From assembly GCA_964016885.1 (NCBI GenBank), contig OZ024741.1, forward strand, positions 7,192,001 through 7,256,000: a DNA stretch of 64,000 bases, read 5' to 3'. Below are positions 5,088 to 63,627 of the stretch, in pieces. Within the stretch, counting starts at the first letter, position 1. Every line of letters starts with the position of its first letter. The stretch comes from Eledone cirrhosa (lineage: Eukaryota). The notes beneath the pieces are model-generated. The model was not told where the DNA came from and did not search any database. It saw only the letters and a list, made by a program, of their open reading frames with translations. A program made the position numbers and the translations under genes.

Positions 5088-5521
5088 AACGAAGGAAATG
5101 TGGTAAGGAACCAGGTGGACCATAACGCACCAATGTACTCAATACTTAGGGTAGTAGAGTGGGTAATAGGAACCAGTAAGACCCCGACGGCTGAGCTCAA
5201 GCCGTTTCGACGGCTAATTCTGGACTAAATGAAAATTTATCCCGGTATTTAAATAGCCGAGCTTCTCAAGGGGTAATTCCATATATGGTCAAAGTGATTG
5301 TCACAAGGATTGGTCACAAGTTAGTAGTAATTCTGAGATGGCTAATTTGCCATCACAGAATTACTACTAACTTGTGACCAATCCTTGTGACAATCACTTT
5401 GACCATATATGGAATTACCCCTTGAGAAGCTCGGCTATTTAAATACCGGGATAAATTTTCATTTAGTCCAGAATTAGCCGTCAAAACGGCTTCAGCTCAG
5501 CCGTCGGGGTCTTACTGGTTC
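5088..5521 (+). mobile_element. Asymmetric fold-back mini-element (PLE inverted pLTR type)
   Basis: About 175-bp arms 5170-5342 / 5349-5521, unpaired tail 5088-5169, flanked by (TA)n. Related fragment at 60045-60160. Confidence 0.85.
5181..5274 (-). ncRNA. Type I hammerhead ribozyme, U3-A8 core variant
   Basis: Reverse complement: acccc TTGAGAA G..CGGCTA/TAGCCG.C GAAA CGGC-ttgagctca-GCCG TC ggggt. The mirror copy 5417-5510(+) has GAAA>AAAA. Confidence 0.75.
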
Positions 5522-6847
5522 ATATATATATATATATATATATATATATATATATATATATATATATATATATATATATATATATATATATATATATATA
5601 CATATACATATATATATATATATATATACATATATATATATATATATATATATATATATATATATATATATATATATATATATATATATATATATAAATA
5701 TGTATATATATATATATAAATATGTATATATATATATATATATATATACATACATATTTATATATATATACATATTTATATATATATACATATTTATATA
5801 TATATACGTATATATATATATATATACATATATATATATATACATATATATATATATATACATATATATATATATATACATATATAACATATACATATAT
5901 ATATACATATATAAAAACAAATTATATATACATATATAAAAACTTAATTATACATATATATATATATATATATATATATATATATATATATATATATATA
6001 TATATACATATATGTATACATATTTATATACATATTTATATATATATACATATATATATACATATATATATATATACGTATATATATATATATATATTTA
6101 TATATATATACATATTTATATATATATACATATTTATATATACATATACATATTATATATATATATATATATATATATATATATATATATATATATATAT
6201 ATATATATATATATATATATATATCTATGTATATATATATATAAATATGTATATATATATATATAAATATGTATATATATATATATATATATATATATAT
6301 ACATACATATTTATATATATATACATATTTATATATATATATATACATATTTATATATATATATATACATATATATATATATATATATATATATATATAT
6401 ATATATAAATATGTATATATATATATAAATATGTATATATATATAAATATGTATATATATATAAATATGTATATATATATACATATTTATATATATATAC
6501 GTATATATATATATATATACATATATATATATATATATATATACATATATAACATATACATATATATATACATATATATATATATATACATATATATATA
6601 TATATATATATATATATATATATATATATACATATATATATATATATATATATATATATGTAGATAAATCTACCAAGAGTTTACGATAGTGTCCAATCCG
6701 TATGAAGAACTCAATGTATTCCGGATATCATGGAAAGAAGAGATGTAATGAAAAATCACTTTCGGTGAAAGATAAACGGTATACAGAGTCAAGATAAAAT
6801 ATTAAACAAATAATGAATAAACAATTCCTTATATTAAACAAAAAAAG

Positions 6848-7002
6848 TTCATTATTTAACGATCGTTTCTAGGATATATATGTGTTAGAATTGGTATGCA
6901 TATTCAACAGATCTATGTACAAAATTATACAAAATTATACAAATTATCAAGATTAAATATACATACCAAACACATATATACGCCGTCTTCAGAAATAATG
7001 AA
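6848..7002 (-). ncRNA. Type I hammerhead ribozyme with very long stem II
   Basis: Reverse complement: ttcattattt CTGAAGA [~120-nt hairpin tatatatgtgtt/aacacatatata] GAAA CGATCG TT aaataatgaa. 10-bp stem I, palindromic stem III AACGATCGTT. Confidence 0.75.
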
Positions 7003-10000
7003 GTATATTTATTGATAATAACAACAATTCAAAATTTCAGGTCCGTTTGGGAACAAAAATTGACCAATGAAAACACAAAGGGTTAAATGCAGTTCGGTGT
7101 GTGTATATACATGTAAAACCCTTACACATATTTTACAAAAATGTATGTATAATTTGTATACGCATACTAAAAAGATGGATGCAAATACAAAATTTCAAGG
7201 TTAATGTCTCTGTAAATTTATAATGTACAGATAAGATGCGTATTGACACTTATGAAATTAAGTATACAAATATATTTTTTCATACTCACACATATCCGTA
7301 CAATCACACATACACGCGCGTATATGCATAAATATACACATAACCACGAACATACAAACACACACACACACCCCCACTCACATTTATATATGTGGATATA
7401 AAATCATAAGCACATGGATATTAATTCACTCACATAAAACACTGGCACACACATTTTTAGATCAAGATACAGAAATTAGGTGGGAGGGGGGGGGGGGGTC
7501 AGTATTCAACGGTCTGAGCAGACTGCCTATTATAGATGTATCTATAAACTAAGAAAAATAAAAAATAAAAAAATAAAAAAATAAAATATAATAAATAAAC
7601 ATTAAAGAGGAAAGAATAGAAAGAAAAACAGAAAAAAGAAAAAAGAAAAAAGAAAAAAGAAATATATCAAGAAAATAAATATATATATATATACACATAT
7701 ATACACATACATATATATATATATATATATATACACACACACATATACATATATATAAATATACATATATATACACATAGACACACACACACCCATACAT
7801 AAATATACACACATATACAAACACATACATACATATACACACATTCACACTAAGAACATACATACACACACATATATAAACATATACATATACACGCATA
7901 CACACATATACACATATACACACAAATACACATACATATATATACACACATATATATATATATATATATATATATATATATATATACATATATATGTGTG
8001 TATATACACGTACATATACACACATATATACATATAATCACACATACTATATAGACACAGATATATATAACCACACACATACATGCACATATACAACACT
8101 TACATACTAATATACATACAGATATACACATACATAGCTATATATACACACAAATATATACAGACTTACATATATACATACAGACAAATACTTACGCATC
8201 TATATATCGGTATATACATACAAACACCACTACACTATCACACAACTTAGAAATACAAAGAGAAAGGTATATACCTATACACACATACATATACAAATAG
8301 AAAAACATATATATATATATATATATATATATATATATACACACACATATACATATACATATATATATATAACATATATATATATATATATATATATACA
8401 CATACAAATACACATACACACACATACAGATATATACACATACATACATGTACACACACATAGAAATATTTACGCATACACACATACACACATACATATA
8501 AAGTCATACCCACACATACACCTACACGAACATACACATACACATATATAAAGATATATATACACACACACACACACACACACAACACATACACACATAC
8601 ACATATATATAAAAAATAAATAATAAAGATATATACATATATATATACACACATACATATATATATATATATATATATATATATATATATATATATACAC
8701 ATACACCTAAAAATATACATACACATACATACACACATACATAGACATACATGTACATACATACACGTACATCGATATACATATATATATATATATACAT
8801 ACATAGACATATACATACAAACACACACAACTTACATACACACATATATATACATGTATATTCATACATAGAATTAGATATATAATCATACATACATATG
8901 CACTTACTTATACTCATATATACAAATACATACGCATCCATATATGCGTATATACATAAAAAACCACTACAACCTCACCTAACTCAGACATACAAATAAA
9001 AATAATAATAAAAAGGCATATGTATATACATACACACACGCATTAATAGAGATATATATCTACACATACATATACACACATATATATATATATATATATA
9101 TATATATATATATATACACACATACACTCATACATATATATATATATACATATATATACATAGATACCCACACACTCATACCACCATAAATACACATACA
9201 AACACCCACGTATACATATATATACACACGTATATATATATATATATATATATACACACACATAAAAAACAGACATGCACATATATATATATTTTTTTAC
9301 ACTTATATATACACATATTATATACACATACACAACCTCACTTATACACACATACACATAAGTTATATTATAATAATAAAAAATAATATATATATATATA
9401 TATACACATATATATATACATATATATACATACATACATATATACATATATATACATATAAACACATACATACACATATACACACATACGAATATAGACA
9501 TATATTCACACGTAGACACCTATATATATATATATATATATATATATATATATATATATATATATATATATATATACACACACATACATATACACAGTCA
9601 CATATACACACTCACATATATATGTGTGTGTACACACACACATATATATACACACATACACATATATACACATAAACACATATATGTGCATACATGCACA
9701 CACACACACATATATCACATAGATAAGAAGATAGACATATAAATAGAGAGACATACATATATATACACAACACACATACACACACATACATACACACACA
9801 TATACATATACATATATATATACATATATATATTCCTATATATACATATATACATATATATACACATATATACACATACATACATATATACGTACACACA
9901 TTCACATACACATACATATATACATGCATATATACACATATATACATACATACACACACTCATATATACACACACAATCTTACATTCATATTTGCATGCG

Positions 10001-62232: not shown

Positions 62233-62691
62233 ATATATATATATATAAAACATGAGAAGAAAGAAGAATACTGCGTGGTTTGCACATGGGTTACATATGA
62301 TAAAAATAGTCCTTCGTCAGTGATTTGCCAACCATCATTGGTATTACATCGCATTAAAAATCATATACCTCAGGTTGGTGCGAGCAATAAGCTAAAAAAA
62401 GTTATTGGGACCAGTAATCGCGTAAAGCGAGGGGGACAAGTGAACAACATAGAAGGATAAAAACAAACCAAAGAAAGGAAATAAACAAGCAACATGGTAG
62501 TCCTGGTCAGCATAAGCTGGGTGGATTTCATGAGCGATTAGTACAGACGTCCAACGTGAGTGAGATGGAAGCAAGAAAAGGCCCACTATATATATATATA
62601 TATATATATATATATATATATATATATATATATATATATATATATATATATATATATATATATATATATATATATATATATATATATATAA

Positions 62692-63160
62692 ATGTAAGTA
62701 TGTATGTATACGTACATACATATATGTATACAGACGTACAGTAGTATGTATATATATATACATACATGCACACATATATATATATGCACGTATCGGTTTA
62801 CCGAACATTTATTATAATGCTCGGTTTGTTTGTTTGTAGACAAACAAACAGCCCGAAACTAGTACATCGTTCCTGTGTCAGTGTTGAACAAAAAAAAAAA
62901 AAGGGTGATATGGTTGCCTAAACACTGTACGGCGTAATTCAGGCTGTTTGTTTGTCTACAAACAAACAAACGGAGCATCATAATAAATGTTCGGTAATCC
63001 GATACGTGCATATATATATGTGTGCATGTATGTATATATATATACATACTACTGTACGTCTGTATACATATATGTATGTACGTATACATACATACATACT
63101 TACATTTAAGTAAGTGCCGTACTAAGAGTGAGAAATGAAATTTCGTTTCATTCTATTCCA
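62692..63160 (-). mobile_element. Fold-back element with tail on the right
   Basis: Arms 62692-62857 / 62938-63107, tail 63108-63160. Confidence 0.75.
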
Positions 63161-63194
63161 TATATATATATATATATATATATATATATATATA

Positions 63195-63627
63195 GTTAAA
63201 AGAATAGAGGTGTAACACACAAGTTATTATATATTGGTAAACGGAATAGAAAATGCTGACAAATTGTTCACAGTTGAAAAATGGTTTAATTAGGAATAAA
63301 AGAGTATTAGTGATTGTATGGGTTAGTATTCAGTTGAGGTTTTAAGTTTTTAAGTTTTTACCGGTTGCGCATTTCTAAATGCTTTTCAAAAATAATTTTG
63401 AGATAGAGTGTCCGTGCTGTTTGCTCAGATCAGAGCAAACAGCACGGACACTCTATCTCAAAATTATTTTTGAAAAGCATTTAGAAATGCGCAACCGGTA
63501 AAAACTTAAAAACTTAAAACCTCAACTGAATACTAACCCATACAATCACTAATACTCTTTTATTCCTAATTAAACCATTTTTCAACTGTGAACAATTTGT
63601 CAGCATTTTCTATTCCGTTTACCAATA
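63195..63627 (+). mobile_element. Fold-back element without an obvious hammerhead
   Basis: Perfect ~195-bp arms centred about 63429, short tail 63195-63228. Confidence 0.8.

Follow-up and report, generated by a model that had tools for sequence, protein, structure and literature searches.

Among described retroelements, the canonical endonuclease-bearing Penelope-like elements (PLEs; Penelope/Poseidon, Neptune, Nematis, Naiad and Hydra) come closest to the short hairpin-forming insertions that crowd a 64-kb stretch of the genome of Eledone cirrhosa (assembly GCA_964016885.1, contig OZ024741.1, positions 7,192,001 to 7,256,000; hereafter the window, 35% GC and dense in (TA)n arrays). In the passages of PMC8557442 and PMC3846280 covered here, these PLEs share with the Eledone elements an inverted 5'-truncated copy at the 5' end, often a tail at one end only, partial tandems, (TA)n targets and a hammerhead motif in the terminal repeat. 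The same passages give tails of 30-40 nt, against 35-180 nt here, treat the tail as optional, differ from the present case in that the miniature hairpin is here the commonest form, and contain no count of complementary ends, loop ownership or arm haplotypes. How the tandem and inverted structures form is stated as an open question (PMC8557442), the standing hypothesis being self-priming on an antisense template (PMC3846280), with "EN-mediated resolution" (PMC8557442). A biochemical counterpart is the Poseidon PAc protein of Anolis, a predicted dimer, which when purified cuts and extends both strands of an AT-rich target, starting at two internal RNA sites that lie side by side and mark the limits of the tail, with no need for hammerhead cleavage (PMC11167929). 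The parts of that paper drawn on here tie these activities, of which the paired start sites, the two-strand extension and the AT-rich target have likely counterparts in our elements, to no inverted repeats, a term that appears once, in a methods phrase (PMC11167929). We propose, with a probability of roughly two in three, that each Eledone element is a single PLE insertion composed of two 5'-truncated, head-to-head copies with complementary outer ends, generated by priming on both cut strands of the target.

In L1 twin priming, reverse transcription is primed from both strands of the target, and microhomology joins the two cDNAs into an inversion; the position at which the second primer anneals varies from one internal site to another, and the resulting pieces are free of overlap. 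The PLE sites, in contrast, are both fixed and the pieces usually overlap, hence a hairpin. What appears to be new here is the counted complementary-end rule, since the inverted copy, the one-sided tail and the (TA)n target are already published for PLEs; neither such a rule nor a two-strand (twin-priming) explanation of PLE inverted repeats was found in the literature surveyed, which lacked most subscription journals and all supplements. The elements are ordinary in kind, being PLE insertions, but as natural data they are unusually clean and allow models of PLE integration to be told apart. Many near-identical young copies in the genome make insertion products countable. Concrete predictions that the existing PLE assay could address in vitro follow from the end rule, from the freedom of either arm to own the loop, from pairs lacking overlap and from the haplotype common to both arms. 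Two-strand copying would account for the long-known inverted repeats of PLEs.

Complementary outer ends

Inverted repeats were sought by self-comparison of the window after masking. A sequence-only reading of the window had named a dozen hairpins; ten of these sites are indeed hairpins (5088, 22374, 32040, 33310, 45368, 45825, 60233, 60948, 62692 and 63195), with arms of 61-284 aligned nt that are 95.1-100% identical, while 60045 has no inverted arms, 61196 is a lone arm (the hairpin lies at 61666-62134), and a further hairpin, 47811-49353, had been missed. The proposed plan of (TA)n, tail, arm, loop and arm stands, each of the ten having an extra tail of 35-180 nt on one side only and TA arrays on both flanks. 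Twenty shuffles of the non-microsatellite window sequence (two simple-repeat tracts excluded) gave no inverted repeats of at least 30 nt within 3 kb.

In the loci sampled from the genome assembly (3.0 Gb, 1796 contigs), the outer ends are fixed in each family, and in nine of ten mapped families the TA-joined 3' ends are bimodal, falling at a tail-less end site (P1) or at a tailed end site (P2) one tail away; family K has a single end. Both lie at short TA-containing sites, in agreement with the earlier suggestion of priming at an internal AT-rich site. Overall, 176 of 179 two-ended head-to-head insertions combine one P1 with one P2, where about 50% would be expected if ends were chosen independently. 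A first set (loci L001-L199 plus the window; ten families, H dropped) gave 141/143, or 140/142 once one duplicate locus is removed; within it the figure was 61/62 among bystander copies, that is, those not retrieved by their own family's search, and 16/16 in arbitrary tiles, 39 of 10 kb each. An independent second set of 43 new loci (scored with a slightly wider gap and tandem wrap) gave 36/37 and offset a bias of the first family A search towards one truncation zone. Families I and B are represented by bystander copies. Family K, with its single end, stands outside the pair counts, as does family H, whose reference matched plain TA arrays and produced 44 spurious P1+P1 rows against one real pair. 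In the locus pairs L120/L121 and L112/L126, the same insertion stands within the same flanking sequence at two positions of the genome, through segmental duplication or as retained haplotypes.

Miniature inverted-repeat transposable elements (MITEs) and palindromic DNA transposons are likewise short, high-copy, hairpin-forming and TA-flanked, but the present elements differ from them in having asymmetric tails, variable centres, termini that are not symmetric, and a continuum with elements coding for reverse transcriptase (RT). A MITE or other class II origin was rejected for want of symmetric termini. Only 3 of 179 pairs are symmetric, so that the symmetric terminal inverted repeats singled out beforehand as the telling alternative did not materialize, and the attribution to PLE machinery rather than MITEs is borne out by family-fixed, bimodal ends.

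Arms range from about 20 nt to more than 3 kb, and the hairpins are the short end of an ordinary continuum of insertion sizes that extends to full-length coding elements with inverted arms. Either arm can be the longer one: among the 176 pairs it is the untailed arm in 82 and the tailed arm in 51, with 43 ties, and among differences of at least 20 nt the figures are 58 and 27. Nineteen first-set pairs have no overlap, and there the tailed arm stops within the tail. The polarity of both outer junctions is that of cDNA joined to a target 3' end; target-site duplications are not readable within TA arrays, and flank polarity around the insertions was informative in five cases only (three same, two opposite).

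Templates, centres and the route of integration

Arm haplotypes were compared in one family, A, over 22 long insertions. Of 158 clean polymorphic comparisons between the arms of an insertion, 4 were discordant; between insertions the figure was 3727 of 9353 (39.8%). Arms differ by 0.32% within an insertion versus 1.26% overall. The arms of this family thus share a haplotype and derive from one source rather than from two independent events. Arms copied from two different templates were also considered and set aside: the discordant family A sites lie at homopolymer or microsatellite edges, those of family F are junction artefacts, and clean sites are concordant. The sequence-only reading had invoked a separate second event, a later insertion into the first copy that adds an inverted tailed copy. 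The Anolis endonuclease is able to cut its own terminal repeat (PMC11167929, as far as covered), and a two-family insert at 2427-4934 is compatible with two RNAs; nevertheless, a later insertion predicts random haplotypes and random end types, and both predictions fail, with haplotypes that differ between insertions at 40% of sites yet are shared by the arms, complementary ends in 176/179 pairs and no TA or target remnant at the centres (pairing excluded centres with at least 8 TA units). These observations largely refute two events, which we regard as very improbable, and together with the free choice of the longer arm they point to a single two-ended event. The insert in question joins an inverted tail-less family B arm (2427-3590, ending at P1) through a 3-nt microhomology to a family G sense arm (3590-4934, ending at P2) that contains an RT thumb, a GIY-YIG endonuclease, a 3' untranslated region (UTR) and the tail.

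Nor are long-read fold-back chimeras or assembly artefacts a credible source, the least probable of those weighed. Some arms are 100% identical and the centre of the 47813 hairpin is not itself spanned by any read shown, but the ends are family-fixed and asymmetric, the arms of older copies have mutated separately and some have received later insertions in one arm only (L040, L043), and tail-less TA junctions as well as alternative inverted junctions occur in short-word contigs of public runs and in raw Illumina reads of another study.

Under two-strand priming, the element protein would cut both strands of a (TA)n array, and both cut ends would prime reverse transcription at two neighbouring start sites, usually on the same RNA, making both outer junctions target-primed. 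The RNA would outlast the first copy, so that a second reading would be possible; to our knowledge the PLE RT lacks RNase H. Where the RT that started downstream, at P2, stalled inside the tail, arms without overlap would result. The two cDNA 3' ends would then be joined through 0-5 nt of microhomology or with short templated inserts, and the second strands filled in by host repair. Priming on both strands at neighbouring RNA sites predicts the observed set of products and, by analogy, matches the Anolis protein in vitro, which favours it.

At the centres, BLAST ends (n=140) overlap by at least 2 nt in 57, are blunt in 32 and have inserts in 51, many matching nearby element sequence; among the 15 junctions that parsed cleanly and lack inserts, 9 show microhomology of at least 2 nt, for which chance alone would give about 20%. 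The centre may close by end-joining of two full cDNAs, or one cDNA may snap back and then anneal. If a single target-primed cDNA simply folded back, the loop would always belong to the tailed arm and the arms would overlap in every insertion; neither holds, and this reading is disfavoured. The more elaborate form, in which two-strand priming is followed by the folding of one cDNA, which copies itself and anneals to a short cDNA on the other target end (the second arm then being mostly a DNA copy), keeps the P1+P2 rule and accounts for haplotype identity, for coupled arm lengths and for near-palindromic junctions in family F, where numerous independent insertions, tailed on one side or the other, share the same two centre junctions at hammerhead stem I (L136-L160). 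We consider it unlikely all the same, though the strongest competitor. Locus L032 is a perfect 2-kb palindrome whose centre has only 2 nt of native self-complement, hence no stem for a fold-back; loops of 1-2 kb are common; and direct end-joining is required anyway for non-overlapping and two-family pairs.

Self-priming on antisense RNA, giving a free hairpin intermediate that is resolved by endonuclease cuts at P1 and P2 ahead of integration, would fit the frequency of palindromic junctions (43 ties of 176), and staggered cuts could leave a tail on one end only, whichever arm is longer. It does not simply produce the 19 non-overlapping pairs or the two-family pair, and requires ligation of both ends, as opposed to the sense-RNA priming from both target strands at tail-bounding sites described in vitro (PMC11167929, in the parts covered); we judge it improbable, more so than snap-back.

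Several points weigh against two-strand priming. The model for these families is drawn from sequence; the end rule covers only insertions with both ends mapped, and has three exceptions (two P1+P1, one P2+P2). In the arbitrary tiles 44 of 76 family ends are unpaired, diverged or spurious matches included, and seven of these are single arms with the 5' end directly on TA. Junctions could be parsed exactly in 22 of 65. In 6 of 21 insertions the ends of the long arms lie less than 100 nt apart, where shuffling gives a mean of 1.5 (p=0.0016), and such coupled lengths, like haplotype identity, are also what snap-back leads one to expect. The two-family insert is a single case that a deletion between neighbours could explain.

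The 5' ends of the arms cluster in a family-specific manner. In B and F they gather at the 5' edge of the hammerhead, in C at the corresponding relic and in A 70-80 nt farther upstream, so the random truncation proposed earlier is at best part of the picture. They do not cluster at the predicted hammerhead cleavage sites, a pattern in line with an uncleaved RNA as template (PMC11167929, in the parts covered).

Families, hammerheads and coding relatives

About 9-10 families occur in the window, close to the eight or so first estimated, and all the hairpins are PLE insertions or non-coding PLE derivatives. The 33310 arm, of family A, has many dispersed copies at 100% identity (1078 first-look candidates, 40 scored), among them an element elsewhere in the genome that is 100% identical to the arms and has an intact 737-aa RT-endonuclease open reading frame (ORF; L031:4400-6610). 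By eye, this ORF has RWR (for RWK), DKT, a CxCx5C linker, CxxC and a CxH near the end of its C-terminal endonuclease, with no CCHH; it has no Pfam match and was assigned from motifs and homologues, the best named ones being from Argonauta hians (39% identity). As the Hydra clade is defined in the covered part of PMC8557442, family A, with its RWK-like motif, DKT, linker, C-terminal endonuclease, hammerhead and (TA)n targets, fits as a putative member; its unit is 3.8 kb with a 1.45-kb 3' UTR, compared with generally less than 3 kb in the Hydra members described there (the clade call being by motifs). Tandem units with inverted arms, the partial-tandem/inverted pseudo-LTR (long terminal repeat) arrangement, were found at L031, L034, L237 and L238, and in these tandems the leader in front of the ORF forms the tail. 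As the sequence-only reading held, the 33310 and 45368 hairpins are linked to a coding PLE in the window (34285-38056) at 83-88% identity; its companion claim, that 61196 matches 3590-4934, fails (scores of 22 and 24 only), and the real match, at 69-77%, is the hairpin 61666-62134. Elsewhere in the window, a fragment of a Hydra-like endonuclease with a CxCx5C linker (11240-12039, minus strand) is 69% similar to 36543-36669, and 12931-13338 encodes an endonuclease fragment.

Family G runs on into an RT plus endonuclease ORF (L214), with a weak Pfam GIY-YIG match below the cut-off (E=4.5e-4). A coding partner was established for A and G only, and for none of B, C, D, E, F, H, I, J and L. Four families have non-coding tandem units: D (259 nt), E (about 591 nt), H (396 nt) and J (467 nt); such short families would borrow the same machinery. 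The D unit includes a tRNA-Ser(CGA)-like sequence (ARAGORN, relaxed threshold) and a hammerhead-like remnant (22410-22748; L110). Its insertions bear the signature of PLE integration, and D may be a mini-element with a tRNA promoter that a PLE has mobilised. Families H and J are, like the non-LTR retrozymes (bioRxiv 10.64898/2026.07.22.740005), non-coding tandem units with a type I hammerhead. J has the motif in successive units at 467-nt spacing, while the 396-nt tandem of H in L062 has one complete motif and one truncated, a partial agreement only with a retrozyme. Both differ from the retrozymes described in the covered part of the preprint in being dispersed and in bearing the PLE integration signature (tail, inversion, TA target); the words "tail" and "integration" do not occur in that part. 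This signature, as read from sequence, offers direct structural support for a putative PLE mobilisation of retrozymes. Families D and E are unlike retrozymes in lacking a complete hammerhead, and D in having tRNA-like sequence.

Hammerheads were sought with a relaxed descriptor (shuffle control 0/320 at a score of at least 9). A canonical core with three stems was found at 33310, 45368 and 60948 (both arms), at 47813 and at 61666, where it is confined to the longer arm, has a weak stem III and scores 8; a U4A variant core occurs at 32040 and 45825. The description of the hairpins as ribozyme-bearing accordingly applies to about half of the instances: a complete motif is present in six window hairpins, 61666 included, in addition to 47813, and the descriptor gave none at 5088, 22374, 60045, 60233, 62692 and 63195. 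The 62692 copy is cut within the hammerhead carried by its family H, complete at L062. A two-mismatch match at 61196, inside an A-run only, was discounted. By family, hammerheads are predicted in A, F, G, H and J, with a variant in B, and were not found in C, D, E, I and L. Folding energies are not better than those of shuffles (z -1.6 to +0.8; three of seven folded stretches ended short of stem I), and Rfam gave three below-threshold HH9 matches at 47813 among the matches listed (150 of 530). The hammerhead is probably a passenger in the terminal repeat, not required for the hairpin. Two hammerhead-bearing 3' ends of a further PLE family (14589-14780 and 23381-23600), 96% identical, lie tail to tail about 9 kb apart.

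Double-stranded RNA potential and the elements of the window

Over the 390 kb of arbitrary tiles, a de novo scan detected 22 inverted repeats that are asymmetric and bounded by TA (not all checked by eye), and 12 overlapping pairs were verified by family. Provided that these tiles represent the genome, the corresponding density of 31-56 hairpins per Mb amounts to roughly 1-1.7 x 10^5 genome-wide. The 12 hairpins in its 64 kb make the window several-fold richer. In the same tiles 214 of 9282 non-microsatellite 50-mers (2.3%) have an inverted partner more than 95% identical within 2 kb, a measure modelled on PMC5625713 with different aligner settings, and 81 of the 214 fall in the window's families. 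According to the covered part of PMC5625713, Octopus bimaculoides has exceptionally high double-stranded RNA (dsRNA) potential (0.44%) and hyper-editing, without repeat annotation, and Penelope elements in a lizard are heavily edited. PLE hairpins are a candidate source of the octopod dsRNA potential. In the broadest form of our reading, which is tentative and somewhat less than an even bet, twin priming at P1 and P2 would be the normal PLE route, explaining tail asymmetry, inverted pseudo-LTRs and tail-only caps; it would also move retrozymes and the tRNA-bearing mini-element, and some 10^5 near-perfect hairpins would be a main source of the exceptional dsRNA potential and hyper-editing of the octopus.

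From the left of the window, the family C hairpin (5088-5525) has its tail at 5088-5170 and arms at 5171-5342 and 5349-5520 (169/172 identical), with a hammerhead-shaped relic that lacks the catalytic core. That of family D (22373-22752; tail 22375-22409, arms 22410-22570 and 22588-22748, 158/161) has no complete hammerhead. A family B hairpin (32039-32941) comprises a tail (32039-32129), a short tailed arm (32130-32238), a 590-nt loop belonging to the untailed arm, and the arm at 32829-32937 (108/109), with the variant hammerhead in both arms. Next to it stands the Hydra-type family A hairpin (33308-33762; tail 33311-33399, arms 33400-33572 and 33586-33758, 173/173), with canonical hammerheads at 33654-33719 (plus strand) and 33439-33504 (minus strand). 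The related coding PLE (34285-38056, minus strand) is 5'-truncated, with RT at 36967-38004, endonuclease at 36040-36966, one in-frame stop between them and a hammerhead in its 3' UTR; its 5' cap is the inverted tail alone (about 37986-38056), the same plan as in the hairpins. An older family A hairpin (45370-45802; tail to 45461, arms 45462-45618 and 45645-45799, 152/155) has the canonical hammerhead in both arms, and is followed by a second family B hairpin (45824-47524) with a long tailed inverted arm (45824-47237), a short arm (47238-47522; 270/284) and the variant hammerhead. In the retrozyme-like family J hairpin (47811-49353), arms at 47811-48492 and 48608-49289 are identical (682/682), the tail occupies 49290-49353 and three hammerheads are present in the 467-nt tandem units.

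The right end of the window begins with the head-to-head pair at 60034-60160 (the 60045 site; best self-inverted score 18), a family C insertion without overlap and not a hairpin, in which an inverted tail-less arm (60034-60093) meets a tail-only sense piece. The non-coding family E hairpin (60234-60895) has a 178-nt tail and arms at 60412-60601 and 60696-60885 (188/190), with no hammerhead found, and that of family F (60947-61157) a 70-nt tail and arms at 61018-61078 and 61094-61154 (61/61), with a canonical hammerhead at the inner end of both. The lone tailed arm at 61195-61540 (minus strand), of family L, is not a hairpin and is unrelated to 3590-4934. The family G hairpin (61663-62134) has a long untailed inverted arm with its hammerhead (61838-61873, minus strand), a short sense arm (61919-62074; 155/156) and its tail on the right (62075-62134). 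The family H hairpin (62689-63160; arms 62694-62850 and 62945-63099, 151/155), also tailed on the right, is truncated inside the hammerhead, and the near-perfect palindrome of family I (63195-63626) has a 44-nt tail and arms at 63239-63426 and 63433-63620 (188/188), with no hammerhead in this copy.

Short inverted duplicates at 61538-61573 and 62195-62230, and likewise in the flanks of L031:329-709, surround a TA array holding a later insertion, which probably entered an older, small hairpin at its TA centre. A 160-nt AT-rich palindrome (51377-51536; 91%) is not bounded by TA arrays and falls outside the assigned families. The 3' parts of a LINE-type (long interspersed nuclear element) RT element at 278-1994 and 18957-20674 are 98% identical, with a 649-aa frame at 18652-20601, and more LINE-type RT frames occur at 23725-25891, about 27060-29582 and 40667-42710. 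The segment 50080-50650 is a 30-nt minisatellite, and about 8 kb of (CAC/TAC/ACC)-type trinucleotide satellite (51900-59800) give rise to low-complexity open frames of 2000 aa.

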